Below, in pieces: positions 28,593 through 53,698 of a DNA stretch of 64,000 nt. The position numbers and the translations under genes were made by a program. Position 1 is the first letter of the stretch. Each line of letters begins with the position of its first letter. The notes under the pieces were generated by a model. It was not told the DNA's origin and did no database searches. It worked only from the letters and a program-made list of their open reading frames with translations. Origin of the DNA: Pyrinomonadaceae bacterium (GTDB taxonomy: Bacteria > Acidobacteriota > Blastocatellia > Pyrinomonadales > Pyrinomonadaceae); contig DATIPD010000006.1 of the NCBI GenBank assembly GCA_035472495.1, positions 37,312-101,311 on the forward strand, given 5' to 3'.

Positions 28593-28593
28593 T

Positions 28594-37899: not shown

Positions 37900-37907
37900 C
37901 GAGTAAG

Positions 37908-38036: not shown

Positions 38037-38041
38037 CACCA

Positions 38042-39828: not shown

Positions 39829-39847
39829 TTGAGATCTGAGATCTCAA
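39829..39847. repeat. Fam-I near-palindrome TTGAGATCTGAGATCTCAA
   Basis: Same GAGATCT word as the 46.7-kb repeat tract. Lies 26 nt upstream of the AlbA_2-domain gene. Confidence 0.5.
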
Positions 39848-42500: not shown

Positions 42501-42610
42501 ACAGGAGGCAGGAGCAGGGTCAGGAGGACCGTCGTTTCAAAAAGGTGAAGGGCAGCGAAACGACGCCGTTCGCTGCCCTCACATTTTCTAACTGCCCCTG
42601 CTGCTGCCCC
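42501..42610. repeat. Fam-D (CAGGAGGCAGGAGCAG) inverted repeat enclosing a terminator-like hairpin
   Basis: Arms ACAGGAGGCAGGAGCAGGGTCAGGAGG and CTGCCCCTGCTGCTGCCCC. Confidence 0.55.
42537..42580 (-). terminator. candidate intrinsic terminator of the VWA gene
   Basis: 10-bp stem GGGCAGCGAA/TTCGCTGCCC. On the minus strand a T-run (CCTTTTT) follows after 5 nt. Confidence 0.5.
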
Positions 42611-46184: not shown

Positions 46185-46458
46185 AGACAGGCTGCGCGCT
46201 GACAGTAACTGCGCACCGTGAGGACAAAACTTCAATGTTGACGAACTGGACAAATATTAAACACACCGCGAGACGGCAGAGATCCGCCGCCATGCGTGGC
46301 GTGTGTTTAAAAGTCGGTCTGGGCTTGTCACCTGTCAATAGTATTTACGGCAAACTCGGAGAACCGACGCGGTTCATAGATAGCCGTCAAATCAAGTACT
46401 AGTTAGCGGGAGCGGACTCCCGCTCCCAAATCTCAAAGAAAAATCGCGAGAATAGTAG

Positions 46459-46507
46459 GAGCGGGCAGCTTCCCTGGGAGGCCTAAAGCCCGCTCTTATT
46501 GTTTTTT
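46459..46507 (+). terminator. intrinsic-terminator-like hairpin
   Basis: Outer stem GAGCGGGC/GCCCGCTC around an inner CTTCC/GGAGG helix, followed by TTATTGTTTTTT. Confidence 0.5.
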
Positions 46508-46675
46508 GACAATCGAAATATCTTTTGCGAGAGATGAAGGCAGGGAGCCTTCGCCGGATGACGACGCTGTTGCGTTGCGAGCGTGTCGAGCGTCGCCATC
46601 CTCAGGAGAAGTGTGCCTCGAAGTGTGTTCGCGGAACGTTTCTCTCTGCCTTCATCTATTTTTTAGCACAACGAG

Positions 46676-46816
46676 ATCGGAAATCTGAAATCGCAAGTTT
46701 TGAGTTCGAGTTTTGAGATCGAGTATTGAGATTCTGATGCTTGTGATCTGAGATTGGAGATCTGAGGTTGAAATTTGAGATCTGAGATACCTGAGATCTG
46801 AGATCTGAGATCTGAA
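46676..46816. repeat. Fam-I tract of GAGATCT(G) words (tandem and inverted)
   Basis: Includes ...GATCTGAGATTGGAGATCTGAGG... and CTGAGATCTGAGATCTGAGATCTGAAG, ending 10 nt before the first tRNA. Confidence 0.65.
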
Positions 46817-46825
46817 GTTTCACTC

Positions 46826-46911
46826 GCATGCGTGGCCGAGCAGCAAAAGCACCTGACTGTAAATCAGGCGTCATCACGACTTCGTAGGTGCGAGTCCTAC
46901 CGCATGCGCCA
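46826..46911 (+). tRNA. tRNA-Tyr (GTA), long variable arm
   Basis: Acceptor GCATGCG/CGCATGC, anticodon arm CCTGA-CTGTAAA-TCAGG, T arm GTAGG-TGCGAGT-CCTAC (atypical G55), G73 and CCA encoded. The D stem is weak. Confidence 0.75.
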
Positions 46912-46917
46912 ACGGTA

Positions 46918-46993
46918 GTCCAAAGTTCAACGTCGAAAGTCCAAAGTCCGTTTGGGTTACAAGACTTTGGACTTTGGACTCGAGACATTGGAC
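46918..46993. repeat. Fam-A (GTCCAAAG) palindromic hairpin
   Basis: Arm GTCCAAAGTTCAACGTCGAAAGTCCAAAGTC and inverted arm GACTTTGGACTTTGGACTCGAGACATTGGAC, between tRNA-Tyr and tRNA-Trp. Confidence 0.8.
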
Positions 46994-47001
46994 TGGCTTT
47001 G

Positions 47002-47076
47002 AGGGATGTAGGCTAACTGGCAAACCGTCGGTCTCCAAAATCGACTTTCTCGGTTCAAATCCGGGCGTCCCTGCCA
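47002..47076 (+). tRNA. tRNA-Trp (CCA)
   Basis: Acceptor AGGGATG/CGTCCCT (one G:U), anticodon arm TCGGT-CTCCAAA-ATCGA, T arm CTCGG-TTCAAAT-CCGGG, G73 and CCA. One D-stem mismatch. Confidence 0.7.
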
Positions 47077-47089
47077 AATAAACTTTCCT

Positions 47090-47178
47090 GGAAGGCCCGA
47101 CAGTAGAGTGCGTCAAGCAGTCCCGAAAACTGCGGCGGCCAAAAGCCGTGTACGGTTCGACTCCGTAGCCTTCCGCCA
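47090..47178 (+). tRNA. tRNA-Ser (CGA), long variable arm, C33
   Basis: Acceptor GGAAGGC/GCCTTCC, anticodon arm GCAGT-CCCGAAA-ACTGC, long variable arm, T-loop TTCGACT, G73 and CCA. The D arm is atypical. Confidence 0.6.
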
Positions 47179-47181
47179 TTT

Positions 47182-47267
47182 GGAGATGTCGCCTAACTGG
47201 TAAGGCAGCGCCCCGCTAAGGCGCCGGGAGCAATCCTGTGAGCGTTCGAATCGCTCCGTCTCCGCCA
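47182..47267 (+). tRNA. tRNA-Ser (GCT), long variable arm, C33
   Basis: Acceptor GGAGATG/CGTCTCC, D stem GCCT/AGGC, anticodon arm GCGCC-CCGCTAA-GGCGC, T arm GAGCG-TTCGAAT-CGCTC, G73 and CCA. Confidence 0.7.
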
Positions 47268-47271
47268 AAAC

Positions 47272-47347
47272 GGGGTTGTAGCTCAACGTATAGAGCGCCG
47301 GTCTGCGAAGCCGGAGGCTGATGGTTAGAATCCATCCAATCCCACCA
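47272..47347 (+). tRNA. tRNA-Arg (GCG)
   Basis: Acceptor GGGGTTG/CAATCCC, D stem GCTC/GAGC, anticodon arm CCGGT-CTGCGAA-GCCGG, T arm GATGG-TTAGAAT-CCATC (A56), A73 and CCA. Confidence 0.7.
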
Positions 47348-47352
47348 CTTCT

Positions 47353-47426
47353 TCCGAGTTCGTCCAATGGCAGGACGGGTGACTTTGAATCACTAAATCG
47401 GAGTTCGAATCTCTGACTCGGAACCA
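47353..47426 (+). tRNA. tRNA-Gln (TTG)
   Basis: U1:A72 acceptor TCCGAGT/ACTCGGA, D stem GTCC/GGAC, anticodon arm GGTGA-CTTTGAA-TCACT, T arm CGGAG-TTCGAAT-CTCTG, A73 and CCA. Confidence 0.8.
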
Positions 47427-47430
47427 ATAC

Positions 47431-47546
47431 GATTGCGGATTGCAGAATGCTGGTGGATCTTCAATCCAGCTGACGACTGGTTGCTGCCCGACTATTCAAC
47501 AAGAATCGAGTCGACTGAAACAAAATCCGCATCAGCAATCACCAAT
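47431..47546. repeat. Fam-E (GATTGCGG-type) imperfect inverted repeat
   Basis: Left arm GATTGCGGATTGCAGAATGC..., right arm ...AAAATCCGCATCAGCAATCACCAATC. Confidence 0.55.
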
Positions 47547-47620
47547 CCTAAATCGCCAGCTAGAAGAGCGATCGCTTTCTAAGCGGTAGGTCAACAGTTC
47601 GAATCTGTTTAGGGTCTCCA
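47545..47620 (+). pseudogene. degenerate tRNA-Arg (TCT)-like unit
   Basis: 76 nt with good anticodon arm ATCGC-TTTCTAA-GCGGT, T arm AACAG-TTCGAAT-CTGTT and a terminal TCCA. The acceptor and D stems do not pair in the canonical register. Confidence 0.3.
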
Positions 47621-47625
47621 TCTAT

Positions 47626-47703
47626 GGCCACGTAGCCCAATCGGCATGAGGCGCCAGTCTTAGAAACTGGTCAGTGAGAGTTCGAATCTCTCCGTGGCTA
47701 CCA
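47626..47703 (+). tRNA. tRNA with Leu anticodon TAG on a short-variable-arm scaffold
   Basis: Acceptor GGCCACG/CGTGGCT, anticodon arm CCAGT-CTTAGAA-ACTGG, 5-nt variable loop, T arm GAGAG-TTCGAAT-CTCTC, A73 and CCA. Confidence 0.6.
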
Positions 47704-47707
47704 CCAT

Positions 47708-47784
47708 GCTCGCGTGATGCAATCGGCAGACATCGGAGTTTCAAAAACTCTGTTTTCTCCGTTCGAATCGGAGCGCGAGTACCA
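47708..47784 (+). tRNA. tRNA with Leu anticodon CAA on a short-variable-arm scaffold
   Basis: Acceptor GCTCGCG/CGCGAGT, anticodon arm GGAGT-TTCAAAA-ACTCT, 5-nt variable loop, T arm CTCCG-TTCGAAT-CGGAG, A73 and CCA. Confidence 0.6.
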
Positions 47785-47789
47785 ACTGC

Positions 47790-47869
47790 GGCGCGGTACG
47801 CAAATCAAGGCAAAGCGGTCTGACTTAAAATCAGATGTTATGAGAGTTCAATTCTCTCCCGCGCCACCA
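47790..47869 (+). tRNA. tRNA with Leu anticodon TAA on a short-variable-arm scaffold
   Basis: Acceptor GGCGCGG/CCGCGCC, anticodon arm TCTGA-CTTAAAA-TCAGA, 6-nt variable loop, T arm GAGAG-TTCAATT-CTCTC, A73 and CCA. Confidence 0.6.
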
Positions 47870-47875
47870 GGCTCT

Positions 47876-47952
47876 GGCGATGAATGCGAAATGGAAAGCA
47901 GGCTGATTTTCAATCAGTTGATTTGCGGGTTCGAGTCCCGTCATCGCTGCCA
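47876..47952 (+). tRNA. tRNA-Glu (TTC)
   Basis: Acceptor GGCGATG/CATCGCT, anticodon arm GCTGA-TTTTCAA-TCAGT, T arm GCGGG-TTCGAGT-CCCGT, G73 and CCA. Confidence 0.75.
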
Positions 47953-47967
47953 GTAAGCTGGCCGGGC

Positions 47968-47994
47968 GCCCGTGGTCTGGCCGAGCGGTTCTAT
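47968..47994 (+). other. orphan tRNA 5' fragment (acceptor plus class-II-type D arm)
   Basis: GTGGTCTGGCCGAGCGGTTCTA resembles the 5' third of a Ser/Leu-type tRNA. It abuts tRNA-His with no anticodon or T arm. Confidence 0.4.
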
Positions 47995-48070
47995 GTTGGC
48001 CGTGGCCGAGTGGCTGAGGCGCGTGACTGTGACTCACGCTACGAGAGTTCGATTCTCTCCGGTCAACCCA
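47995..48070 (+). tRNA. tRNA-His (GTG) with encoded G-1
   Basis: G-1 opposite C73, acceptor TTGGCCG/CGGTCAA, anticodon arm CGTGA-CTGTGAC-TCACG, T arm GAGAG-TTCGATT-CTCTC, CCA. Confidence 0.75.
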
Positions 48071-48076
48071 ATACCT

Positions 48077-48154
48077 TAGTTTCGAGTTTCAAGTTCCAGG
48101 TTTCAAGGCACAAAGTTTCTGCACTTTGAACCTCCAACTTGGAACTCGAAACTA
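48077..48154. repeat. Fam-K palindromic hairpin (GTTTCGAG/CAAGTTCC words)
   Basis: Arm TAGTTTCGAGTTTCAAGTTCCAGGTTTCAAGGC and inverted arm GCACTTTGAACCTCCAACTTGGAACTCGAAACTA. Confidence 0.7.
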
Positions 48155-48159
48155 TTCCT

Positions 48160-48234
48160 GGAACTGTGGCCGAGAGGTGAGGCACTTGGTTGTCAACCAA
48201 GCCGATGACGGTTCGAGTCCGTTCAGTTCCGCCA
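48160..48234 (+). tRNA. tRNA-Asp (GTC)
   Basis: Acceptor GGAACTG/CAGTTCC, anticodon arm CTTGG-TTGTCAA-CCAAG, T arm GACGG-TTCGAGT-CCGTT, G73 and CCA. Confidence 0.8.
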
Positions 48235-48244
48235 TCTGTCTGGA

Positions 48245-48301
48245 GAGACATTCCTGTCTGTCCGCCGTTTTTTGCGGGACAGGCAAGAATGCCTGTCCTA
48301 C
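48245..48301. repeat. Fam-F (GACAGGAATG/CCTGTCCTAC) hairpin
   Basis: CATTCCTGTCTGTCCGC pairs with GCGGGACAGGCAAGAATG. A second copy lies at 51052-51112. Confidence 0.7.
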
Positions 48302-48304
48302 CTC

Positions 48305-48380
48305 GCTTCCGTAACTTAACTGGCAAAGTGTTGGTCTCTTAAACCAGAAGATGTCGGTTCGACGCCGACCGGAAGCACCA
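48305..48380 (+). tRNA. tRNA-Lys (CTT)
   Basis: Acceptor GCTTCCG/CGGAAGC, D stem ACTT/AAGT, anticodon arm TTGGT-CTCTTAA-ACCAG, T arm GTCGG-TTCGACG-CCGAC, A73 and CCA. Confidence 0.85.
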
Positions 48381-48387
48381 AATTTTT

Positions 48388-48460
48388 TGCGGAGAGAATG
48401 GGTATTCAAGTAGGTCTCATAAACCTTCCTTCGTCAGTTCAACTCTGGCCTCCGCAACCA
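48388..48460 (+). tRNA. tRNA with CAT anticodon (elongator Met or Ile2-type), atypical D arm
   Basis: U1:A72 acceptor TGCGGAG/CTCCGCA, anticodon loop CTCATAA on a 4-bp stem, T arm GTCAG-TTCAACT-CTGGC, A73 and CCA. The D arm is non-canonical. Confidence 0.5.
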
Positions 48461-48527
48461 ATCTCGTAGCGCTGAATCCCCTCCAACGACAACGCAAATT
48501 ATCAGTTTGCGTTACAGAACGTTTTAT

Positions 48528-48604
48528 TCAAGCGACCGATGTGGGCTGTCGGTGTCCGCCTGTTAAGCGGAACGTCGTGGGTTCGAGTCCCACCGCTTGA
48601 GCCA
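48528..48604 (+). tRNA. tRNA-Asn (GTT)
   Basis: Acceptor TCAAGCG/CGCTTGA, anticodon arm TCCGC-CTGTTAA-GCGGA, T arm GTGGG-TTCGAGT-CCCAC, G73 and CCA. Two extra nt lie between the D and anticodon arms. Confidence 0.65.
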
Positions 48605-48619
48605 AAACTCCTTGTTCTT

Positions 48620-48697
48620 GCTCGCGTACCGGTCTCCGCTTCTAACGGAGTAGCCGTAACTGGAAAGATGCGGGTTCAACTCCTGCCGCGAGCACCA
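48620..48697 (+). tRNA. aberrant tRNA-Arg (TCT)-like gene with D-arm-like sequence after the anticodon arm
   Basis: Acceptor GCTCGCG/CGCGAGC, A73 and CCA, anticodon arm CTCCG-CTTCTAA-CGGAG, T arm GCGGG-TTCAACT-CCTGC. No D arm is in the normal place; TAGCCGTAACTGGAAAG sits in the variable position. Confidence 0.35.
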
Positions 48698-48701
48698 CTT
48701 T

Positions 48702-48794
48702 CTTGGCGTAGCACAAATGGCAGTGCGGCAGGCTTATACCCTGTGAGCTCCAGATTAGAGCGCGATCCAGGTTCGAATCCTGGCGCCAAGACCA
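48702..48794 (+). tRNA. tRNA with TAT anticodon (AUA reader) on a long-variable-arm scaffold
   Basis: Acceptor CTTGGCG/CGCCAAG, D stem GCAC/GTGC, anticodon arm GCAGG-CTTATAC-CCTGT, 22-nt variable arm, T arm CCAGG-TTCGAAT-CCTGG, A73 and CCA. Confidence 0.55.
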
Positions 48795-48798
48795 CAAC

Positions 48799-48877
48799 CG
48801 ATTTCGGATTGACGATTGCAGATTGCGGATTGAGGCAACTGATTAATCGGAGATCCGCGATCGCCAATTCCCAATCG
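48799..48877. repeat. Fam-E (GATTGCGG-type) palindromic hairpin
   Basis: Arm GATTTCGGATTGACGATTGCAGATTGCGGATTG and inverted arm AATCGGAGATCCGCGATCGCCAATTCCCAATCG. Confidence 0.7.
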
Positions 48878-48882
48878 TTTCG

Positions 48883-48957
48883 GCTCCTATGGCGTAACTG
48901 GCAACGTAGCGGACTTTTAATCCGCGGTTCAGAGTTCGAGTCTCTGTGGGAGCACCA
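48883..48957 (+). tRNA. tRNA-Lys (TTT)
   Basis: Acceptor GCTCCTA/TGGGAGC, anticodon arm GCGGA-CTTTTAA-TCCGC, T arm CAGAG-TTCGAGT-CTCTG, A73 and CCA. Confidence 0.85.
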
Positions 48958-49059
48958 ATTGATTGCGGCTTTCGGAATGCGGATTTCGGATTTGAAAACA
49001 AGCGAAAACTATTAAGTCTTCAACTTCGCAATCCGAGTCCCAGCAATCCGCAATCGAAA
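48958..49059. repeat. Fam-E palindromic hairpin
   Basis: Arm AATTGATTGCGGCTTTCGGAATGCGGATTTCGGATTT and inverted arm CTTCGCAATCCGAGTCCCAGCAATCCGCAATCGAAA. Confidence 0.7.
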
Positions 49060-49060
49060 C

Positions 49061-49133
49061 GGCCGCGTGATGTAACGCAACATGCTCGCCCGATTAGCGA
49101 GTCTTCCGGGTTCAAATCCTGGCGCGGCTACCA
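49061..49133 (+). tRNA. tRNA-Ile (GAT), C33
   Basis: Acceptor GGCCGCG/CGCGGCT, D stem ATGT/ACAT with a 6-nt loop, anticodon arm CTCGC-CCGATTA-GCGAG, T arm CCGGG-TTCAAAT-CCTGG, A73 and CCA. Confidence 0.6.
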
Positions 49134-49184
49134 ACAATTCGAATTCCCCAACTTTTCAACTATTCTTAAGAAAGGAGAAAGCAA

Positions 49185-50363
49185 ATGCCTTACGAAAAGC
49201 TACCTATCGGTGGCGCCCGCAACGAGATTCTCTCGTGGGCCAACCACGACTTCAGCATCGAGGAACAGTCGATGTTGCGCAACGTTTCGCGATTGCCTTG
49301 TCTGTTCAAACATGTGGCGCTGATGCCTGATGCACACTTGGGCAAAGGCAGCATGGTTGGTTCAGTCATCGCTACGAAACAAGCGGTGATTCCGGCAACG
49401 GTCGGCGTCGACATCGGCTGCGGCATGATGGCGGTGAAGACACCGTTCAAGAGCGGCATCCTCGACGGAAAGTTGAAGGAGCTGCGCCTCGCGATCGAAG
49501 AAACAATTCCGGTCGGCTTCAACGCGTACAAAGAATCGGTTGACGAGTCTTCGTACTGGGACGGCTGGAAGGAATTTGGTGAACTGCATCAGGGCGTGCA
49601 AAGTCGGAAAGTGAAAGCGATGACGCAGCTGGGCACGCTTGGTGGCGGCAATCATTTCATCGAAGTTTGTCTGGACACAGAAAACTTCGTTTGGTTGATG
49701 CTCCACTCAGGTTCACGCAATATCGGCAAGGAGTTGGCAGAACGTCACATCTCGACAGCCAAGGGCTTGTGGCAACTGAATGAACTGCCTTCACCCGATC
49801 TTGCTTACTTCGTGCAGGGCACGCCGGAATTTGCGGCGTACTGGAAAGACTTGAAGTGGGCCCAGGGTTACGCGATGAAGAATCGCGAAATCATGATGAC
49901 GCGACTGTTACAGGTCTTCAACAAGTTGTTCAATCATCGTCAGCCCTTCAAGCCGGAACTTCAGGTTAACTGCCATCACAATTACGTTGCGCTCGAGGAG
50001 CATTACGGCGAGAAAGTTTTCGTCACCCGCAAGGGCGCAATCAATGCGGACAAAGACGCATTCGGCATTATTCCCGGCTCGATGGGCGCGAAATCGTTCA
50101 TCGTGCAAGGCCGCGGACTGGCGGAGAGTTTTAATTCCTGCTCTCACGGCGCTGGTCGCAAGATGTCGCGCGGTGCAGCCAAGCGAACTTTTAATAAGGA
50201 CGACCTGGCTCGACAAACTGCGGGCGTCGAATGTCGCAAAGACGTAGGCGTGCTGGATGAAATTCCTGGCGCTTACAAAGACATCAAAGCGGTGATGCGC
50301 AACCAGAGCGATCTGGTAAAGATCATTGCCGAGATCAAACAAGTGGTGTGTGTGAAAGGCTAG
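49185..50363 (+). CDS. rtcB: RNA-splicing/repair ligase RtcB
   Basis: 392 aa with RtcB motifs GVDIGCGM, GGGNHFIE, HSGSRNIG, NCHHNY, PGSMG and SCSHGAGR. RBS AAAGGAGAAA lies upstream. Confidence 0.92.
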   Translation: MPYEKLPIGGARNEILSWANHDFSIEEQSMLRNVSRLPCLFKHVALMPDAHLGKGSMVGSVIATKQAVIPATVGVDIGCGMMAVKTPFKSGILDGKLKELRLAIEETIPVGFNAYKESVDESSYWDGWKEFGELHQGVQSRKVKAMTQLGTLGGGNHFIEVCLDTENFVWLMLHSGSRNIGKELAERHISTAKGLWQLNELPSPDLAYFVQGTPEFAAYWKDLKWAQGYAMKNREIMMTRLLQVFNKLFNHRQPFKPELQVNCHHNYVALEEHYGEKVFVTRKGAINADKDAFGIIPGSMGAKSFIVQGRGLAESFNSCSHGAGRKMSRGAAKRTFNKDDLARQTAGVECRKDVGVLDEIPGAYKDIKAVMRNQSDLVKIIAEIKQVVCVKG

Positions 50364-50430
50364 TCCAAAGTCCAACGTCCAAAGTCAGGAATCGTCAAAC
50401 AGACTTTGGACATTGGACTCGAGACTTTGG
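50363..50430. repeat. Fam-A palindromic hairpin
   Basis: Arm GTCCAAAGTCCAACGTCCAAAGTC and inverted arm GACTTTGGACATTGGACTCGAGACTTTGG. Starts at the rtcB stop codon. Confidence 0.8.
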
Positions 50431-50441
50431 GGTCTGTCTTC

Positions 50442-50515
50442 CGGGGTGTGGTGTAACGTGAGCATCCGAGTCCTGGGAACTCGTGGCGACAGTTCAATTC
50501 TGTCCTCCCCGACCA
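50442..50515 (+). tRNA. tRNA-Pro (TGG), C33
   Basis: C1:G72 acceptor CGGGGTG/CTCCCCG (one mismatch), anticodon arm CGAGT-CCTGGGA-ACTCG, T arm GACAG-TTCAATT-CTGTC, A73 and CCA. Confidence 0.65.
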
Positions 50516-50521
50516 AATCCA

Positions 50522-50579
50522 GTCCAAAGTCCAACGTCCAAAGTCAGGATCATCAAACAGATATTGGACCTTGGACTTT
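50522..50579. repeat. Fam-A palindromic hairpin
   Basis: Arm GTCCAAAGTCCAACGTCCAAAGTC and a shorter inverted arm ATATTGGACCTTGGACTTT. Confidence 0.75.
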
Positions 50580-50585
50580 CCTCCC

Positions 50586-50662
50586 GCATCGTTGGTCCAG
50601 AGGGTTCAAGACACGGCGTTGCCAACGCTGAGACACCGGTTCGAATCCGGTACGATGCTCCA
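50586..50662 (+). tRNA. tRNA-Gly (GCC)
   Basis: Acceptor GCATCGT/ACGATGC, anticodon arm CGGCG-TTGCCAA-CGCTG, T arm ACCGG-TTCGAAT-CCGGT, U73 and CCA. Confidence 0.85.
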
Positions 50663-50672
50663 ATCAATCCTC

Positions 50673-50749
50673 GTCCAAAGTCCAACGTCCAAGGTCCAAA
50701 GCCAAGAATCGATGAACAGACTTTGGACCTTGGACGTTGGACATCGGAC
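50673..50749. repeat. Fam-A palindromic hairpin
   Basis: Arm GTCCAAAGTCCAACGTCCAAGGTCCAAAGCC and inverted arm GACTTTGGACCTTGGACGTTGGACATCGGAC. Confidence 0.8.
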
Positions 50750-50755
50750 TAAGAC

Positions 50756-50832
50756 GCTTCCGTAGCTCAATTTGGAAGAGCGCGACGCTTCGAACGTCGA
50801 GGTTGTGGGTTCAAGTCCCGCCGGGAGCCCCA
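50756..50832 (+). tRNA. tRNA-Arg (TCG)
   Basis: Acceptor GCTTCCG/CGGGAGC, D stem GCTC/GAGC, anticodon arm CGACG-CTTCGAA-CGTCG, T arm GTGGG-TTCAAGT-CCCGC, C73 and CCA. Confidence 0.85.
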
Positions 50833-50836
50833 ATCC

Positions 50837-50970
50837 ATTGGCGATTTCCGATTGCCAATTGCCGATTTTCCTCACTTCAAACTTGCGTGTCCCAAAAGAA
50901 CAGCCTCACTGTTCAAACCAAAAAGAACATACACGCTAATCGGCAATTGCCAATCGGCAATCGACAATTT
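50837..50970. repeat. Fam-E (GATTGCCAATTGCCG) inverted repeat with about 65-nt loop
   Basis: Arm ATTGGCGATTTCCGATTGCCAATTGCCGATTTT and inverted arm CTAATCGGCAATTGCCAATCGGCAATCGACAATTT. Confidence 0.7.
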
Positions 50971-50973
50971 CCT

Positions 50974-51048
50974 GCGGGAGTGATGTAGCTGGCAACATGC
51001 AAGTCTTCCAAACTTGCTTCGAGAGTTCGAATCTCTCCTTCCGCTCCA
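50974..51048 (+). tRNA. tRNA-Gly (TCC)
   Basis: Acceptor GCGGGAG/CTTCCGC, anticodon arm CAAGT-CTTCCAA-ACTTG, T arm GAGAG-TTCGAAT-CTCTC, U73 and CCA. Confidence 0.85.
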
Positions 51049-51051
51049 AAT

Positions 51052-51112
51052 GTAGGACAAGCATTCCTGCCTGTCCTCTCTAACCAAAGAAGGACAGGAA
51101 TGTCTGTCCTAC
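51052..51112. repeat. Fam-F hairpin
   Basis: GTAGGACAAGCATTCCTGCCTGTCCT ... AGGACAGGAATGTCTGTCCTAC. Confidence 0.7.
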
Positions 51113-51115
51113 CTC

Positions 51116-51191
51116 GCGCGCGTCGCCAAGCGGCTAAGGCGCTGGATTGCAAATCCAGTATTCGTGAGTTCGAGTCTCACCGCGCGCTCCA
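51116..51191 (+). tRNA. tRNA-Cys (GCA)
   Basis: Acceptor GCGCGCG/CGCGCGC, anticodon arm CTGGA-TTGCAAA-TCCAG, T arm GTGAG-TTCGAGT-CTCAC, U73 and CCA. Confidence 0.85.
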
Positions 51192-51198
51192 CACTCCA

Positions 51199-51275
51199 GT
51201 CCAAAGTCCAAGGTCCAAAGTCCAAGGTCAAGAACCGCAAGACAGACTTTGGACGTTGGACGTTGGACCTTGGAC
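51199..51275. repeat. Fam-A palindromic hairpin
   Basis: Arm GTCCAAAGTCCAAGGTCCAAAGTCCAAGGTC and inverted arm GACTTTGGACGTTGGACGTTGGACCTTGGAC. Confidence 0.8.
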
Positions 51276-51299
51276 TACTCTACGAAGGGAGGTGCCGTG

Positions 51300-51878
51300 A
51301 TGGCACTTGATGGCAGAGTTCTGCTGCTAAATCAAACCTACGAGCCGCTCGGCACCGTCAGTGTGGCCCGAGCAATAGTAATGACTTTCAAGAACAGCGT
51401 CTTCGTCGAGGAATGGGACGGCGATCGCGTTCTTCATTCGGCCCGGGAGGAATTCCCGGTGCCTTCAGTAATTCGCCGACGCACTTACATCAACGTGCGG
51501 CGCCGGCGTGAACAGTCAGGGATGAAGCGACTCCGCATCTACATGCGTGACAAGTTTCGTTGTCAGTATTGCGGCGACAAGAAGACCCTGGCTGAACTAA
51601 CGCTCGATCACATTCTGCCGCGTTCGCGTGGCGGCGATAACTCGCCGCTCAACGTAGTGACAGCATGCACCGCGTGCAACAACCGCAAGTCTAACCGGAC
51701 ACCGGCGGAGGCACGCATGCCTTTGCTGACGTCGCAGTCGGCGTTGCGGGTAAAGCTCGAACGCGTTGTGCTTTGTCACTACGCCGAGGCGCGCGCTGAG
51801 TGGCGCAAGTACCTGTTCATGGACGTGCATGACGATCGCGACGTGATGGACAGGGTGGAGCGCGAAAGACGCGCGTAA
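51300..51878 (+). CDS. HNH endonuclease
   Basis: 192 aa from the ATG at 51300, with RBS GAAGGGAGG upstream. HNH motif CQYCG...LTLDHILPRSRGGDNSPLNVVTACTACNNRKSNRTP. The track start at 51249 lies inside a repeat. Confidence 0.8.
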   Translation: MALDGRVLLLNQTYEPLGTVSVARAIVMTFKNSVFVEEWDGDRVLHSAREEFPVPSVIRRRTYINVRRRREQSGMKRLRIYMRDKFRCQYCGDKKTLAELTLDHILPRSRGGDNSPLNVVTACTACNNRKSNRTPAEARMPLLTSQSALRVKLERVVLCHYAEARAEWRKYLFMDVHDDRDVMDRVERERRA

Positions 51879-51882
51879 ATTC

Positions 51883-51988
51883 ATTGCCGATTGCTGAGCG
51901 GATTGCCGATTGCCAATTGCCGGTTTCCGATTGCCTTCAATCGAACAGGCTTTTTCAAATCGGCATTTTGTACCGGGAATCGGCAATG
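51883..51988. repeat. Fam-E inverted repeat
   Basis: Arm ATTGCCGATTGCTGAGCGGATTGCCGATTGCCAATTGCCGG... and inverted arm AAATCGGCATTTTGTACCGGGAATCGGCAATG. Confidence 0.65.
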
Positions 51989-51993
51989 CGTTC

Positions 51994-52065
51994 GGTCGGA
52001 TAGCTGAGAAGGATTAGCGTGGGTCTGAAAAACCCGAGAGGTTGGTTCGATTCCAACTCCGACCG
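51994..52065 (+). tRNA. tRNA-Phe (GAA), no encoded CCA
   Basis: Acceptor GGTCGGA/TCCGACC, anticodon arm TGGGT-CTGAAAA-ACCCG, T arm GTTGG-TTCGATT-CCAAC, G73, followed by CCG. Confidence 0.75.
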
Positions 52066-52072
52066 CCGAACC

Positions 52073-52150
52073 GAAGGATGAAGGATGAAGGATGAAGGCT
52101 GAAATGAAGTGTTTTGTTTCATCCTTCATCCTTCCGCCCTCATCCTTGAT
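52073..52150. repeat. Fam-C (GGATGAAG) palindromic hairpin
   Basis: Arm GAAGGATGAAGGATGAAGGATGAAGGCTGAAATGAAG and inverted arm TTTCATCCTTCATCCTTCCGCCCTCATCCTTGAT. Confidence 0.8.
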
Positions 52151-52155
52151 TTCCC

Positions 52156-52231
52156 GCCCGAGTAGCTCAATTGATGGAGCGCTGGTCCTACAAACCAGAG
52201 GTTGAAGGTTTAAGTCCTTCCTTGGGCACCA
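52156..52231 (+). tRNA. tRNA-Val (TAC), C33
   Basis: Acceptor GCCCGAG/CTTGGGC, D stem GCTC/GAGC, anticodon arm CTGGT-CCTACAA-ACCAG, T arm GAAGG-TTTAAGT-CCTTC (T56), A73 and CCA. Confidence 0.7.
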
Positions 52232-52235
52232 AATG

Positions 52236-52304
52236 ACAGGAGGCAGGCGGCAAAGCAGGAGGCAGTAGGTTTTGCCTGTCCCTGCACCTGCCTCCTGCTC
52301 CTGA
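52236..52304. repeat. Fam-D (CAGGAGGCAG) palindromic hairpin
   Basis: GACAGGAGGCAGGCGGCAAAGCAGGAGGCAGTAGG ... CCTGTCCCTGCACCTGCCTCCTGCTCCTG. Confidence 0.7.
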
Positions 52305-52309
52305 TCTTC

Positions 52310-52392
52310 CGGGGCGTGACTCATCTCAGCAGAACGTGGACTGCCTGGGAGCGTGGAGTTAGGAGAGGCGCGCCAGCCTCACGCCCCGACCA
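52310..52392 (+). ncRNA. tRNA-sized structured element ending in A-CCA (not a canonical cloverleaf)
   Basis: 10-bp terminal helix CGGGGCGTGA/TCACGCCCCG followed by ACCA. Internal hairpins TCTCAGCAG-AACGTGGA-CTGCCTGGGA and GAGGC-GCGCCA-GCCTC. Occupies a tRNA slot between two hairpin repeats. Confidence 0.3.
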
Positions 52393-52397
52393 GTACT

Positions 52398-52478
52398 GAA
52401 GGATGAGGGATGAAGGATGAGGGATGAACCTCCAATTCCCGTACCTTCATCCCTCCGCCCTCATCCTTCATCCCTCAT
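52398..52478. repeat. Fam-C palindromic hairpin
   Basis: GAAGGATGAGGGATGAAGGATGAGGGATGAA ... TTCATCCCTCCGCCCTCATCCTTCATCCCTCAT. Confidence 0.8.
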
Positions 52479-52482
52479 TTCT

Positions 52483-52557
52483 GGGGCTATGATCTAACGG
52501 CCATGATGCCTGCCTTGCAAGCAGGACGTAGAGGTTCGACTCCTCTTAGCTCCACCA
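52483..52557 (+). tRNA. tRNA-Ala (TGC)
   Basis: Acceptor GGGGCTA/TAGCTCC with the G3:U70 identity pair, anticodon arm CCTGC-CTTGCAA-GCAGG, T arm AGAGG-TTCGACT-CCTCT, A73 and CCA. Confidence 0.85.
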
Positions 52558-52568
52558 AAATACAGAAA

Positions 52569-52656
52569 GCAGCAGGCAGGAGCAGTAGGCAGCAGTTGAG
52601 AGTCACGGTCTAGAACCAGGAACTCCCCTGCCGACTGCCGCTGCCTCCTGCTCCTG
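52569..52656. repeat. Fam-D palindromic hairpin
   Basis: GCAGCAGGCAGGAGCAGTAGGCAGCAG ... CTGCCGACTGCCGCTGCCTCCTGCTCCTG. Confidence 0.7.
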
Positions 52657-52663
52657 ACTTTTC

Positions 52664-52743
52664 GGCGATGTAGCTCAACTGGATAACAGAGCACCGGTCT
52701 TGTAAACCGAACGATAAGGGTTCGACTCCCTTCATCGCCTCCA
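52664..52743 (+). tRNA. tRNA-Thr (TGT)
   Basis: Acceptor GGCGATG/CATCGCC, D stem GCTC/GAGC with a 12-nt loop, anticodon loop CTTGTAA (first stem pair C-A mismatch), T arm AAGGG-TTCGACT-CCCTT, U73 and CCA. Confidence 0.75.
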
Positions 52744-52787
52744 CAACCGGACCTGAAGACACGGAGACGGGAGACACGTAGACGAGC

Positions 52788-53237
52788 ATGCAGCAAAAGA
52801 TATTTCGGTTGTCGTTCGACGGGCGAAGAATGCAAATCGTAAATTCATGTTCATTCGGTTTGTCAGCGGCGAAATTGATCAGGCTTCTCGTTTCGGCGGG
52901 TCTTTTCCAGGCTGCCTCCGAACTCAGGTGGCGCGACGGCCTACCTGACTACGAATTCGACGCGCTCATCGGACTGAGAGATTGGTTCAACGCTAATCTC
53001 GAATCGCCCTTTGACCACCTGCCGCGAGCGAAATGCTATGACCGAGCAATTTGCTGGTTTAAGCCTGCGGCTCGCGAACACTTGGTTCGAGCGAGAGAAC
53101 TAGTCACAATTCTTGAAAGAAACGATGTCTTGATTTGGACAATCAGATCCCGAAGGGTTGGCTACATTTATTACGAAGACGAAACACAGGTTTTGGCAGA
53201 ACCATTTAGTGATGTCAGACCAATTTGCAGGAGGTAA
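52788..53237 (+). CDS. hypothetical protein
   Basis: 149-aa ORF directly after the last tRNA. I recognise no motif. Closely followed by the DIP1984-family ORF. Confidence 0.4.
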   Translation: MQQKIFRLSFDGRRMQIVNSCSFGLSAAKLIRLLVSAGLFQAASELRWRDGLPDYEFDALIGLRDWFNANLESPFDHLPRAKCYDRAICWFKPAAREHLVRARELVTILERNDVLIWTIRSRRVGYIYYEDETQVLAEPFSDVRPICRR

Positions 53238-53242
53238 TAGAA

Positions 53243-53698
53243 ATGAAACTAGCAGAAGCTCTAATTCTACGAGCTGATTGTCAGAAGCGTTTTGCGCAAG
53301 TAAAAGCTAGGCTGCTGCTTAACGCGCGCGTCCAGGAAGGCGACCAGCCGGCAGAAGATCCGCAGAAGTTGATTACCGAAACGGAACGCCTGGCCGATGA
53401 GCTGGTTGATTTGATCAAGCGTATCAATCGCACCAACTCTGCAACAGTCGTTGACGTTGGCAAAACAATTTCTGACGTGCTTGCTGACCGTGACGTGCTC
53501 GGCTTGCGTCGTAGCGCGTACAACGAACTGGCGCAGAACGCGTCGATTGCCTACGCGCGAGTGACGCGAACGGAAATCAAATACGTTTCGACGGTGAAGG
53601 TAGTTGAGATTCAGAAGCGGGCGGATGAGCTGGCGAAGAACTATCGCGAGCTCGACGCGCAAATTCAGGAGCTCAACTGGAAGACTGAACTGCTCTAA
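53243..53698 (+). CDS. DIP1984-family (septicolysin-like) protein
   Basis: MKLAEALILRADCQKR..., INRTN and ...ELNW..EL match the DIP1984 family pattern as I recall it. RBS AGGAGG lies upstream of the ATG at 53243. Confidence 0.6.
   Translation: MKLAEALILRADCQKRFAQVKARLLLNARVQEGDQPAEDPQKLITETERLADELVDLIKRINRTNSATVVDVGKTISDVLADRDVLGLRRSAYNELAQNASIAYARVTRTEIKYVSTVKVVEIQKRADELAKNYRELDAQIQELNWKTELL

Follow-up and report, generated by a model that had tools for sequence, protein, structure and literature searches.

Long tRNA arrays are known in cyanobacteria, mycobacteria and phages. The association of a tRNA array with rtcB and an HNH gene has already been published for the L-arrays of cyanobacteria, of which that of Anabaena is silent, has TrcR as its repressor, is induced by ribosome-targeting antibiotics along with rtcB and all8564, an HNH gene, and has 23 of its 26 tRNAs aminoacylated in vivo (PMC8421152, PMC10272220). 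Here we describe an array from a soil chromosome of Pyrinomonadaceae (Acidobacteriota), located within a window of 64 kb, i.e., the whole stretch of DNA that was analysed. We lean, with some reserve, towards reading it as an L-array-type accessory tRNA operon of the chromosome that is leader-controlled, long resident in Pyrinomonadaceae and proposed to work in backup and repair.

ARAGORN placed all of its 27 tRNA genes at 46826-52743 of the + strand (4.6 per kb over 5.9 kb) and none in the rest of the window. They are arranged as 18 tRNA genes with decayed units, rtcB, five tRNA genes, an HNH gene and four tRNA genes. Both protein-coding genes, which a preliminary description had placed inside the array, were recovered with Pfam on the strand of the tRNAs. 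The features were as follows:

about 46268..46680, + strand, conserved non-coding leader (blastn across family loci; metagenome motif scan)
46680..46815, + strand, heptamer repeat tract, GAGATCT-type (TRF: period 7, 10 copies)
46826..46911, + strand, tRNA-Tyr(GTA), class II (ARAGORN; Rfam 50.2 bits)
47002..47076, + strand, tRNA-Trp(CCA) (ARAGORN; Rfam 50.6 bits)
47090..47178, + strand, tRNA-Ser(CGA), class II, weak, C33, without U8 (ARAGORN; sub-threshold Rfam tRNA; tRNA-Sec model 27.3 bits)
47182..47267, + strand, tRNA-Ser(GCT), class II, C33 (ARAGORN; Rfam 50.4 bits)
47272..47347, + strand, tRNA-Arg(GCG) (ARAGORN; Rfam 68.4 bits)
47353..47426, + strand, tRNA-Gln(TTG) (ARAGORN; Rfam 62.2 bits)
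47545..47616, + strand, decayed tRNA unit, Arg-TCT-like, without CCA (Rfam partial 28.9 bits at 47558-47609; relaxed ARAGORN only)
47626..47703, + strand, tRNA-Leu(TAG), class I, Leu-type D arm, A73 (ARAGORN; Rfam 59.0 bits)
47708..47784, + strand, tRNA-Leu(CAA), class I, A73, weak (ARAGORN; without Rfam tRNA match)
47790..47869, + strand, tRNA-Leu(TAA), class I, A73 (ARAGORN; Rfam 57.1 bits)
47876..47952, + strand, tRNA-Glu(TTC) (ARAGORN; Rfam 51.3 bits)
47995..48070, + strand, tRNA-His(GTG), including G-1 (ARAGORN 47996-48070; Rfam 55.0 bits; G-1 read from sequence)
48160..48234, + strand, tRNA-Asp(GTC) (ARAGORN; Rfam 61.8 bits)
48305..48380, + strand, tRNA-Lys(CTT) (ARAGORN; Rfam 61.7 bits)
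48388..48460, + strand, tRNA with anticodon CAT, weak, not initiator-like (ARAGORN; without Rfam match)
48528..48604, + strand, tRNA-Asn(GTT), weak, without U8 (ARAGORN; Rfam partial 26.8 bits)
48619..48698, + strand, decayed or rearranged tRNA-like unit, previously called Arg-TCT (tRNA-Sec model 23.8 bits, E = 0.3)
48702..48794, + strand, five-arm tRNA-Ile(TAT) (ARAGORN; Rfam 56.8 bits)
48883..48957, + strand, tRNA-Lys(TTT) (ARAGORN; Rfam 62.5 bits)
49061..49133, + strand, tRNA-Ile(GAT), C33, U37 (ARAGORN; Rfam 44.7 bits)
49185..50363, + strand, rtcB, 392 aa (Pfam PF01139, E = 7e-122, full length)
50442..50515, + strand, tRNA-Pro(TGG), C33 (ARAGORN; Rfam 47.0 bits)
50586..50662, + strand, tRNA-Gly(GCC) (ARAGORN; Rfam 58.2 bits)
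50756..50832, + strand, tRNA-Arg(TCG) (ARAGORN; Rfam 63.6 bits)
50974..51048, + strand, tRNA-Gly(TCC) (ARAGORN; Rfam 59.5 bits)
51116..51191, + strand, tRNA-Cys(GCA) (ARAGORN; Rfam 63.6 bits)
51249..51878, + strand, HNH endonuclease gene (Pfam HNH_5, E = 2.7e-16)
51994..52067, + strand, tRNA-Phe(GAA), without encoded CCA (ARAGORN; Rfam 58.5 bits)
52156..52231, + strand, tRNA-Val(TAC), C33 (ARAGORN; Rfam 64.1 bits)
52483..52557, + strand, tRNA-Ala(TGC) (ARAGORN; Rfam 61.5 bits)
52664..52743, + strand, tRNA-Thr(TGT), final array gene (ARAGORN; Rfam 61.5 bits)

With the gathering score of the Rfam model RF00005 (cut-off: 29 bits) as threshold, 22 array tRNAs were retained in a fast search and 23 of the 27 in a sensitive search (44.7 to 68.4 bits), so that most members score above the threshold. 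For the remaining four (Ser-CGA 47090, Leu-CAA 47708, CAT 48388, Asn-GTT 48528) ARAGORN drew cloverleaves with non-canonical details. By anticodon, the array covers all 20 amino acids, Met depending on the weak CAT gene, and 3' CCA is encoded in 26 of the 27 genes with Phe as the exception, both as described before. The earlier count of 28 cloverleaf genes on the + strand holds, with agreeing anticodons, for 27 of them but not for Arg-TCT at 48619-48698, which we class as a decayed unit: it received no default ARAGORN call, adopted a different, mismatched fold under relaxed settings, and reached only the listed tRNA-Sec score. Inspection of the sequence shows a fragment at 47960-47995 that looks like the 5' half of a tRNA, and in family loci L002, L005 and L010 a tRNA-Arg(CCT) lies 2 nt upstream of Leu-TAG, where the decayed unit at 47545-47616 sits here. 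The quick turnover of gene content, the four sub-threshold tRNAs and the two or three decayed units fit weak selection on individual members, and the encoded G-1 of tRNA-His (47995, facing C73), the CCA ends and the covarying stems described below may be taken as signs of selection for function.

No decoder was found in the array for the codons UCU, UCC, UCA, AGA, and AGG, which together account for 30.8 per 1000 codons across 36 ORFs of the window; rtcB and the HNH gene themselves contain 14 such codons. The array also contains no initiator-type tRNA; its CAT tRNA has a U1-A72 pair and a shortened D arm, and its anticodon stem holds a T-T mismatch and is without the three basal G-C pairs. L014, L019, and L024 retain rtcB and the HNH gene at this site, together with the leader or flank, and have no tRNA or a single one there. 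The array tRNAs diverge faster than the flanking tRNA-Pro(GGG), whose mean identity over eight loci is 92% compared with 74-90% for array tRNAs at the same loci. Because of the missing decoders and initiator, the tRNA-poor relatives and the faster divergence, we infer that the array is accessory or supernumerary and not the housekeeping set, in line with the preliminary description. Its term "self-contained" is not tenable, since the array is unable to read all codons or to start translation.

The tRNA genes form compact blocks with gaps of 3-13 nt, interspersed with gaps of 67-250 nt that hold palindromic hairpins; the block structure noted earlier is thus present, but the hairpins are a genome-wide repeat type inserted into the array rather than its punctuation. 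A recently acquired mobile island, as the word "island" had implied, is disfavoured by several lines of evidence. The G+C content agrees with that of the surroundings, the flanks consist of ordinary chromosomal core genes shared with L003 and L004 and contain no integrase or transposase, and no close RtcB or HNH relatives were found in IMG/VR. Compared among relatives, the rtcB-HNH-tRNA block is family-wide, being present in many Pyrinomonadaceae members with 0 to 34 tRNAs; among the 35 Pyrinomonadaceae-type loci anchored on rtcB, 19 have 10 to 34 tRNAs around this gene. These loci recognisably share the order Tyr-Trp-Ser-Ser-Arg-Gln..Leu x3-Glu-His-Asp-Lys before rtcB and rtcB / Pro-Gly-Arg-Gly-Cys / HNH / Phe-Val.. 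from rtcB onward. Genes, gene order and block conservation are direct observations.

The rtcB product is a 3'-phosphate/5'-hydroxyl RNA ligase (AAGGAG 5' of the ATG) that is 85-94% identical to its Pyrinomonadaceae homologues. An alignment to Pyrococcus horikoshii RtcB shows its catalytic motifs, those for metal binding and the nucleophile, to be intact. The HNH ORF opens at TTG 51249, and its start is probably the GTG/ATG at 51297-51300, after GGGAGG. In 29 of the 35 loci the gene follows rtcB (58-91% identity), and homologues with 33-43% identity occur in or adjoining tRNA arrays of a Nostoc plasmid, a Mycolicibacterium plasmid, Synechococcus phage S-CBWM1, and Tunturiibacter phage Tunturi_5. 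Genes for RtcA, RtcR, and archease were not seen adjoining the operon.

The leader is conserved and tied to the operon with or without tRNAs. It comprises a palindrome H1 (GCGGGAGCGG-ACTC-CCGCTCCC, 46406-46427), a hairpin H2 (GGAGCGG...CCGCTC, 46458-46495) with a T-run after it, an invariant box TTGACAA (46506-46512), and H3, whose long closing stem (46532-46547 with 46642-46657) is followed by ATTTTTT. Identity across L001-L010 is 73-87% (blastn) with near-invariant blocks. In family loci the leader is always located 5' of the array or, if the locus is tRNA-free (L011, L012, L031), immediately 5' of rtcB, and H1-H2 are discernible right before the first tRNA in the distant members L013, L018, L020, L021, L024, L027, and L041, the last five of which also have heptamer hairpins in between. 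When soil metagenome contigs were scanned with the leader motif alone, 99 were informative, and in 85 of these a tRNA or rtcB follows on the same strand; tRNA-Tyr is the first array gene in 47 of the 76 contigs with a tRNA after the leader. A coding region is disfavoured by frame-breaking indels and hairpin insertions, and no Rfam family matched the leader. Its stems are invariant among the compared loci, so that covariation is unable to decide between a structured RNA and a DNA motif bound by protein. No promoter was identified for the operon, sigma-70-like matches being at chance level, and from the leader to the array end no intrinsic-terminator-like site was found on the + strand except a false match within a tRNA.

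Several array tRNAs are oddly built. All three tRNA-Leu lack the long variable arm and are class I, with a variable loop of 4-5 nt in the ARAGORN cloverleaf of Leu(TAG). The five-arm tRNA-Ile(TAT), a type common among phage contigs, combines A73 and canonical acceptor, D and T arms with an anticodon hairpin (loop CUUAUAC) and a second, GAU-bearing hairpin (GCUC / CAGAUUA / GAGC) followed by a 5-nt variable loop; in the family alignment both hairpin stems covary and both loops are invariant. U33 is near-universal in tRNAs, from which the C33 of five of the 27 (Ser-CGA, Ser-GCT, Ile-GAT, Pro-TGG, Val-TAC) departs, and the anticodon loop of tRNA-Ile(GAT), CCGAUUA, is non-canonical at both C33 and U37. 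Changes in the anticodon loop are reported to let phage tRNAs escape anticodon nucleases (PMC10264068). C33 could reflect poor decoding instead of nuclease resistance.

By analogy with the Anabaena L-array, the most likely function is that of a stress-induced backup-and-repair tRNA operon, for which we infer co-transcription, stress induction and roles in both backup and repair. The leader would precede a single long same-strand unit of tRNAs, rtcB, tRNAs, the HNH gene and tRNAs, and would hold it low in normal growth, with transcription passing under translation stress. RNase P and 3' processing enzymes would cut the precursor transcript into tRNAs, which may supplement or substitute depleted or cut housekeeping tRNAs; many of them deviate from the standard at or near recognition sites of anticodon nucleases (C33 in five tRNAs, tRNA-Leu without long arm, the extra arm of tRNA-Ile(UAU)). 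RtcB from the same transcript would re-join cleaved tRNAs, and the HNH protein, a conserved companion of such arrays, may be a DNA nuclease of the homing type, serving to maintain or spread the array.

No TrcR-like gene was seen adjoining the Pyrinomonadaceae operon. Both the cyanobacterial L-arrays and the Pyrinomonadaceae array combine a tRNA array with rtcB and an HNH gene, and the long-resident chromosomal array with its control region and oddly built tRNAs appears to be new to description.

Twenty-seven tRNA genes were called by ARAGORN between 46826 and 52743, all on the + strand, and none was called elsewhere in the 64 kb window. Against the Rfam tRNA model, with its gathering cutoff of 29 bits, 22 genes passed in the fast search and 23 in the sensitive one, the latter scoring 44.7 to 68.4 bits. 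The genes below the threshold (Ser-CGA, Leu-CAA, CAT, and Asn-GTT) were each called by ARAGORN and can be folded into a cloverleaf with defects such as an absent U8 or a short D arm. The tRNA array proposed in a preliminary description of this DNA is therefore real, with small corrections, and covariance scores below threshold for most members, named there as a refutation, did not occur (23 of 27 genes above the Rfam cutoff). The 28th gene of that description, an Arg-TCT, was supported neither by ARAGORN with default settings nor by Rfam and is a decayed unit. The array and the features within it are as follows:

46826-52743, + strand: array of 27 tRNA genes
47545-47616: decayed tRNA unit
47960-47995: decayed tRNA fragment resembling a 5' half
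about 48619-48698: decayed tRNA unit, the former Arg-TCT
48702-48794: tRNA-Ile(TAT) with five arms
49185-50363, + strand: rtcB (Pfam PF01139, E = 7e-122)
51249-51878, + strand: HNH gene within the array

All 20 amino acids are covered by the anticodons assigned by ARAGORN, and tRNA-His has G-1 paired opposite C73. As had been noted before, every gene but Phe encodes CCA (26 of 27), and the Pfam scan placed rtcB and the HNH gene on the same strand inside the array. The density is 4.6 genes per kb (27 genes in 5918 bp, the two protein genes included), the largest gap is 251 nt with the two ORFs set aside, the anticodon order is non-repeating, and no terminator-like site on the + strand was found inside the array in the terminator scan. 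A tRNA array unit has been defined as a region of at least 20 tRNA genes at no fewer than 2 per kb (Tran et al., 2016, PMC4758250), and both values are exceeded here, the first by the ARAGORN as well as by the Rfam count. The common orientation, co-transcribable spacing, length, and non-periodicity of L-arrays (Santamaria-Gomez et al., 2021, PMC8421152) are also all present.

We infer that the array cannot be the only tRNA set of its genome and that its genes are supernumerary, because decoders and an initiator are missing, relatives are poor in tRNAs at this locus, and the array diverges fast. The codons UCU, UCC, UCA, AGA, and AGG have no decoder in the array, make up 30.8 per 1000 codons in 36 window ORFs, and are used 14 times by rtcB and HNH themselves. 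No initiator tRNA was found in the array, its single CAT gene not being initiator-like. In some relatives the locus has zero or one tRNA and in others only 10-15; the related locus L019 has the upstream gene, rtcB, and HNH as in the window with zero tRNAs, and the sole tRNA retained in L024 is the first one of the array. Among eight loci having both, the flanking tRNA-Pro(GGG) has a mean identity of 92% and the array tRNAs 74-90%, mostly about 78-80%. Comparison of the window with its closest relatives gave only 64-70% identity for several same-anticodon tRNA genes, with RtcB at about 90%. The accessory status claimed in the preliminary description is thereby supported, and the presence/absence comparison suggested there showed rtcB and HNH persisting at the locus with 0-1 tRNA. 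That the block is instead the main, housekeeping tRNA set organized as one long operon, as in Firmicutes, would agree with the anticodons for all 20 amino acids, the good scores of most genes, and the family-wide conservation of the block at a chromosomal site. Such a set would, however, leave five sense codons undecoded that its neighbors, rtcB, and HNH use, would lack an initiator, would be reduced to 0-1 or only 10-15 tRNAs at the same locus in relatives, would hold same-anticodon genes of 64-70% identity as against 92% for the flanking tRNA-Pro(GGG) across more distant species, and would include tRNA-Leu genes devoid of a long arm and five genes of 27 with C33, which makes this explanation highly improbable.

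Species-representative genomes were scanned with RtcB, which yielded 80 loci, 35 of them of Pyrinomonadaceae or Blastocatellia type with RtcB identities of 65-92%. In 19 of these 35 loci rtcB is surrounded by 10 to 34 tRNA genes, and in 29 an HNH gene with 58-91% identity lies downstream of it. The shared order is Tyr-Trp-Ser-Ser-Arg-Gln ... Leu-Leu-Leu-Glu-His-Asp-Lys / rtcB / Pro-Gly-Arg-Gly-Cys / HNH / Phe-Val-..., and tRNA content and order vary between species; the block CAT-Asn-Ile(TAT)-Lys(TTT)-Ile(GAT), for example, precedes rtcB in the window and is at the 3' end in four family loci (L004, L005, L007, L010). An upstream flank encoding a vWA-like protein, a PA-IL-like protein, and a glyoxalase is common to the window and the related loci L003 and L004, and in more distant members the block lies downstream of thiL and a minus-strand tRNA-Pro(GGG). 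RtcB homologs number hundreds at 85-94% identity, the named ones being from Pyrinomonadaceae or Acidobacteria, and identity declines smoothly from 94% to 65% within the family. No array was found within 10 kb of RtcB relatives outside the family, the closest of which are from Microcoleus (63-64%). The sprinkled distribution by horizontal transfer that belongs to the L-array description was thus not seen: the block is widespread in Pyrinomonadaceae and local synteny is kept.

Further genes of the surroundings are:

24719-25177, - strand: 152-aa ORF with an N-terminal BrnT ribonuclease toxin domain (residues 5-74)
39873-41180, + strand: 435-aa protein with a Schlafen/AlbA_2 domain, 5.6 kb upstream of the array
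52788-53237, + strand: protein without family match, downstream of the array
53225-53698, + strand: DIP1984/DUF6847 protein, downstream of the array
54034-55305, + strand: AAA ATPase with general similarity to IetA/IteA and FtsH-type ATPases, downstream of the array

The BrnT-type ORF exceeds the usual length of BrnT, and a fusion with its antitoxin is possible. The Schlafen protein has E45-x4-E50-x-K52 at the start of its domain, matching Ex4(E/D)xK, the reported catalytic motif of bacterial Schlafen tRNA nucleases (PMC13056530); its gene is syntenic in L004 (80% identity), and it may be a tRNA-cutting defense enzyme near the tRNA/RtcB operon. The gene at 52788-53237 also directly follows the array in the family loci L007 and L012. 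Assignment of the ATPase to the Iet/Ite anti-phage system was rejected, its NCBIfam IteA score being 69.7 bits against a cutoff of 510 and its PADLOC IetA score of about 84 bits reflecting general AAA similarity. Another AAA ATPase, all0263, belongs to the Anabaena TrcR regulon.

The RtcB domain is full length (profile positions 2-426 of the Pfam model), which places the protein in the RtcB family, and all catalytic motifs are intact, with DIGCG, GNHF, HSGSR, HHN, and SHGAGR aligning to RtcB of Pyrococcus horikoshii. Its best NCBIfam match is the model for intein-containing RtcB proteins; the window copy is intein-free. Inteins are suggested for the rtcB genes of six related loci, since these align only from the region of the active-site Cys onward (residue 79 in L028, L029, L030, and L032, 72 in L038, and 156 in L040). 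No RtcA cyclase or RtcR adjoins rtcB, and the arrangement is therefore not the Rtc RNA-repair operon (RtcR-RtcA-RtcB); the window has a single sigma-54 activator, a response regulator at a distance of 40 kb.

Relatives of the HNH protein are encoded in or beside arrays on a Nostoc plasmid (20 tRNAs) and a Mycolicibacterium plasmid (locus L087, 30 tRNAs, 37% identity), and in or beside tRNA genes in Synechococcus phage S-CBWM1 and the acidobacterial jumbo phage Tunturi_5, the latter with RtcB and a CCA-adding enzyme. Homologs with 33-36% identity are directly upstream of Nostocales plasmid arrays, and through these copies the all8564-type HNH neighbor of L-arrays is recognized here; their linkage to rtcB is matched by the rtcB gene inside the array. 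For the best HNH matches on plasmids of Acaryochloris and Tsukamurella, no tRNAs were found within 10 kb, which shows that members of this family also occur away from arrays.

The palindromes between the tRNA blocks consist of tandem heptamers, 3-10 per arm, with GTCCAAA, GAAGGAT, CAGGAGG, GAGATCT, and ATTGCCG as recurring families. Palindromes of the same kinds are present in other intergenic regions of the window, and they lie at:

10835-10864
13846-13875
21361-21532
22868-22974
28501-28593
30565-30712
37894-38038
39830-39844
42502-42527
46696-46815
gaps of the array

They also occur in distant family members. The palindromes behave as insertions of a genome-wide repeat type: relatives lack them at the corresponding junctions (the gap between Tyr and Trp measures 90 nt in the window and 8-9 nt in five relatives), and they have also entered the leader in L001, L003, L004, L006, and L009. 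The idea that these hairpins punctuate the array had to be given up, as the same repeats are found elsewhere in the window and are missing from the Tyr-Trp gap of the five relatives. They are reminiscent of the cyanobacterial STRR repeats.

Upstream of the first tRNA is a non-coding leader of about 410 nt (~46268-46680), the conservation of which roughly equals that of the rtcB coding sequence in the ten family loci L001-L010. Its elements, in order, are:

H1: palindrome GCGGGAGCGG-N-CCGCTCCC
H2: GGAGCGG, a variable inner hairpin, CCGCTCC, then a T-run
TTGACAA box: invariant, right after the H2 T-run
H3: 16-bp closing stem enclosing two inner hairpins, then ATTTTTT

In three tRNA-less relatives (L011, L012, L031) the leader directly precedes rtcB, and in distant family members H1-H2 and the TTGACAA box are discernible just before the first tRNA. 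Metagenome contigs were scanned using the H1-H2 motif alone, which gave at least 120 matches. Among the matches listed, 99 contigs had at least 400 nt downstream; a same-strand tRNA follows within 700 nt in 76 of these 99, the first tRNA being tRNA-Tyr in 47 of the 76, rtcB lies downstream of the motif in 9 of the 99, and the median distance from motif to first gene is 250 nt. The leader has four GGAGCGG/CCGCTCC segments that are mutually complementary, with alternative pairings possible, and could be a transcription attenuator gating the tRNA and RtcB operon. In the covariation analysis its stems were invariant, so covariation cannot tell an RNA switch from a protein operator.

Alternatively, the leader might encode one or two separate small RNAs ending in terminator-like hairpins, with the promoter of the array at the TTGACAA box. 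A T-run follows both H2 and H3, the invariant TTGACAA stands immediately past the former, and Y RNAs are encoded beside rtcB in enterobacteria. Against this, the Rfam search of 46300-53300 (E up to 10) returned only tRNA matches and chance microRNA-like matches on palindromes, with no family, including the Y RNA models, matching 46300-46700; no -10 box is present at a workable spacing from TTGACAA; and H1-H2 is always on the same strand as the first tRNA or rtcB, which it precedes by tens to a few hundred nt. In the sigma-70 promoter scan no promoter stood out, and promoter and terminator counts were at chance level; the leader hairpins were not called in the terminator scan because their loops are longer than the limit of the tool. 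The small-RNA explanation is thus doubtful, and the leader, with attenuation as its possible function, is a concrete candidate for a new regulatory element.

Several tRNAs of the array are unusual. All 39 tRNA-Leu genes in the arrays of the family (window 47626-47869; L002-L041) are 74-80 nt long without the long variable arm and have a variable loop of 4-5 nt, a Leu-type D arm, and A73. The tRNA-Leu genes of the Nostoc array (L086:10811-11044) and of many viral contigs (L088:588-1050; L093:15-176) share these features, and those of the Mycolicibacterium array are normal, with 85 nt. A further ARAGORN call in the Nostoc plasmid array (L086:11132-11223, 92 nt, anticodon TCC for Gly) may be an insertion-bearing or misfolded gene. 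The viral contig L093 (168 kb) has tRNAs at 15-4473, with a tmRNA (2757-3067, tag VESEFALAA) among short tRNA-Leu and several tRNA-Arg, and RtcB a few kb from the tmRNA at 8001-9131. The almost universal U33 is replaced by C33 in 5 of the 27 window tRNAs (47090, 47182, 49061, 50442, and 52156) as well as in 45 of the 407 tRNAs in the family's arrays, C33 recurring family-wide in the same isoacceptors (Val-TAC, Ala-TGC, Ile-GAT, Pro-TGG, and Ser-CGA); it may represent escape from anticodon nucleases or a decoding defect.

The tRNA-Ile(TAT) has five arms. Its anticodon hairpin with the loop CUUAUA(A/C) is followed by a second hairpin having a 7-nt loop with invariant GAU and a final A, and its 3' part comprises a normal variable loop, T arm, and A73. 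Covariation was observed in both hairpin stems in the family alignment. Members were identified in the family (window 48702-48794; L004:14470-14565; L005:14113-14205; L006:9717-9809; L007:6743-6835; L010:6349-6441; L013:11353-11440; L015:6955-7046; L029:8258-8349) and in viral or phage sequences (L092:15667-15759; L148:1512-1609; L291:146-238; L292:147-234), all with A73 except L010 (T73). In a pattern scan of viral contigs 117 of 121 matches were structurally valid five-arm tRNAs, the type being common in IMG/VR contigs, and a scan without the GAU requirement gave 31 valid UAU tRNAs with a long variable region, of which 27 had GAU in the extra loop and all 31 had A73. Searching phage genomes by blastn using the five-arm tRNA returned mostly partial T-arm matches and two full members; among cultured phages the gene is unannotated in Lactobacillus phage LpeD and annotated as tRNA-Ile in Acinetobacter phage vB_AbaS_qsb1. 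The central 40 nt of L013:11353-11440, gcgagcttatacctcgtaacgacagataatcggctgatgc, are identical to those of the vB_AbaS_qsb1 gene (L292:147-234) with differing acceptor stems, a match which suggests exchange or strong constraint across phyla.

Two other identities were considered for the TAT gene. Allo-tRNAs (Mukai et al., 2017, PMC5389517) are characterized by acceptor/T stems of 8/4 or 9/3 and a tetraloop on a long D stem; the TAT gene, with its 7/5 layout, D stem of 4 bp, and D loop of 8 nt containing GG, is not one of them. Derivation from tRNA-Leu, as in the nematode nev-tRNAs, is ruled out by its D arm, which is class I and Ile-like. In the literature searched no published description of a UAU tRNA with an extra arm was found. 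The extra GAU hairpin looks like a copy of the anticodon arm of tRNA-Ile(GAU); speculatively, it could let the ordinary isoleucyl-tRNA synthetase accept a UAU decoder without lysidine or, alternatively, could serve as a decoy for anticodon-directed enzymes. The tRNA-Leu without the long arm, the C33 loops, and the five-arm tRNA-Ile(UAU) bear on the rules of tRNA identity as well as on the escape of phage-type tRNAs from anticodon nucleases.

It is possible, though less likely than not, that the array is a domesticated, chromosomal phage-type translation kit with two undescribed parts, the palindrome-rich leader and the five-arm tRNA-Ile(UAU). An ancient phage origin of the array is conceivable. 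Had a phage translation kit reached the chromosome recently, on a mobile island or with a prophage now reduced to a remnant, this would account for an HNH family common to plasmid and phage arrays, including an acidobacterial jumbo phage with rtcB and a CCA-adding enzyme, for class I tRNA-Leu and five-arm tRNA-Ile(UAU) being frequent in viral contigs, and for the L013 five-arm tRNA having a center almost the same as in vB_AbaS_qsb1. The G+C content of the array (0.52-0.54) nevertheless equals that of its flanks in a window that is even throughout (0.50-0.58), and no integrase, transposase, conjugation, or phage structural genes were found near the array in Pfam scans of the flanking ORFs; with neither mobility genes nor deviating composition, the region lacks the marks of a genomic island or mobile element. 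Synteny of the upstream flank extends to L003 and L004, RtcB identity declines smoothly within the family, and host-type heptamer hairpins have invaded the intergenic gaps. The search of IMG/VR gave no close RtcB or HNH (best 57% and 37%, respectively), which speaks against a recent viral origin. A recent mobile origin is therefore quite unlikely, and the word island in the preliminary description does not hold in that sense, given the native composition, the absence of mobility genes nearby, the L003/L004 synteny, and the family-wide conservation. The other window genes are ordinary chromosomal ones for the kynurenine pathway, xanthine-dehydrogenase-type enzymes, panB/panC, acyl-CoA metabolism, two-component systems, and efflux.

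A cryptic array kept by drift or by a selfish HNH endonuclease, i.e., a silent relic in decay, could explain the four sub-threshold genes, the two or three decayed units, the fast gain, loss, and relocation of genes, and the frequent non-canonical C33, and L-arrays were originally described as cryptic (PMC8421152). It is hard to reconcile with a block kept across the family while RtcB diverged to 65%, with preserved identity elements (G-1/C73 in tRNA-His, A73 in tRNA-Leu and tRNA-Ile, CCA), with covarying stems, with an almost invariant leader, or with an HNH divergence tracking that of RtcB (58-91% vs. 65-92%) as expected under purifying selection, and we consider it unlikely.

The single strand, the tight spacing, the lack of internal terminator-like sites, the shared leader, and the RBS before rtcB suggest that the block forms a single regulated transcription unit. 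In Anabaena, antibiotics that target the ribosome induce the array jointly with rtcB and the HNH gene, TrcR being the repressor, and 23 of the 26 tRNAs of that array are charged (PMC8421152, PMC10272220). By analogy, stress would induce a supply of spare, partly nuclease-resistant tRNAs, and RtcB ligase from the same unit would re-join cut tRNAs; it has been reported that phage tRNAs evade anticodon nucleases when their anticodon loops are altered (PMC10264068). The prevailing view of long accessory tRNA arrays is that they spread horizontally and mostly stay silent, and only that of Anabaena has been assigned a role. Here, the array has been retained by a whole bacterial family abundant in soils; it occupies a chromosomal site, encloses rtcB and HNH, and is preceded by a near-invariant leader. 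This family-wide retention together with the leader argues for a selected, regulated function. The array would also be another, independent case for examining the idea that spare tRNAs and an RNA ligase shield translation from tRNA-cutting toxins, antibiotics, or phage defense.

In the 2021 survey Acidobacteria were placed among the phyla without L-arrays (PMC8421152) and in the 2016 survey of tRNA arrays they were not listed (PMC4758250); no paper on tRNA arrays in Acidobacteria or Pyrinomonadaceae was found in the literature searched. The cyanobacterial L-arrays (Anabaena/Nostoc sp. PCC 7120 trn operon, all8564; PMC8421152, PMC10272220), compared using the Nostoc CENA543 plasmid array, share with the window some 20-30 same-strand tRNA genes, roughly one per amino acid, in non-periodic order with pseudogenes interspersed, an HNH of the same family (33-36% identity to the Nostocales plasmid copies), a functionally linked rtcB, and short class I tRNA-Leu (75-76 nt in Nostoc CENA543). 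In contrast to those sporadic or plasmid-borne arrays, the window array is chromosomal and family-wide, has rtcB and HNH inside, and has a palindrome-rich leader as its candidate control region in place of the direct repeats for TrcR; the order of genes is unrelated, and identity between same-anticodon tRNAs is only 55-75%. The Mycobacterium/Mycolicibacterium arrays (PMC5966550, PMC6515697) likewise reach 20 or more tRNA genes at a density above 2 per kb, and L087 has the same-family HNH embedded, but they are located on plasmids or phages, are patchy among strains, and keep the long arm of tRNA-Leu, and rtcB was not seen in the inspected locus.

Tunturiibacter phage Tunturi_5 and Synechococcus phage S-CBWM1 resemble the window in tRNA genes interleaved with the same-family HNH, the former also in its RtcB ligase, and viral contigs share the short tRNA-Leu and the five-arm tRNA-Ile(UAU); the Tunturi_5 RtcB is, however, only 30% identical, the setting is a virus genome, and the leader was not seen there. 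The Acidithiobacillus array (PMC4758250) is similar in its accessory, redundant tRNA genes on a Gram-negative chromosome, but it is carried by an excising integrative conjugative element with neighboring regions non-syntenic between species, whereas the window array has no mobility genes and its flanks are syntenic in close relatives. In the enterobacterial rtcBA (rsr-yrlBA-rtcBA) operon under RtcR, thought to respond to tRNA damage (cited in PMC8421152, PMC10272220), an RtcB ligase is also encoded with tRNA-like RNAs; at the window locus RtcA, RtcR, Rsr, and Y RNA were not detected and the companions are real tRNA genes. Compared with these systems, the block is a tRNA array unit by the published definition and has most features of L-arrays without their sporadic, horizontally spread distribution, and what is new about it is its chromosomal location, its retention by the family, rtcB and HNH inside the array, and a conserved leader of its own.
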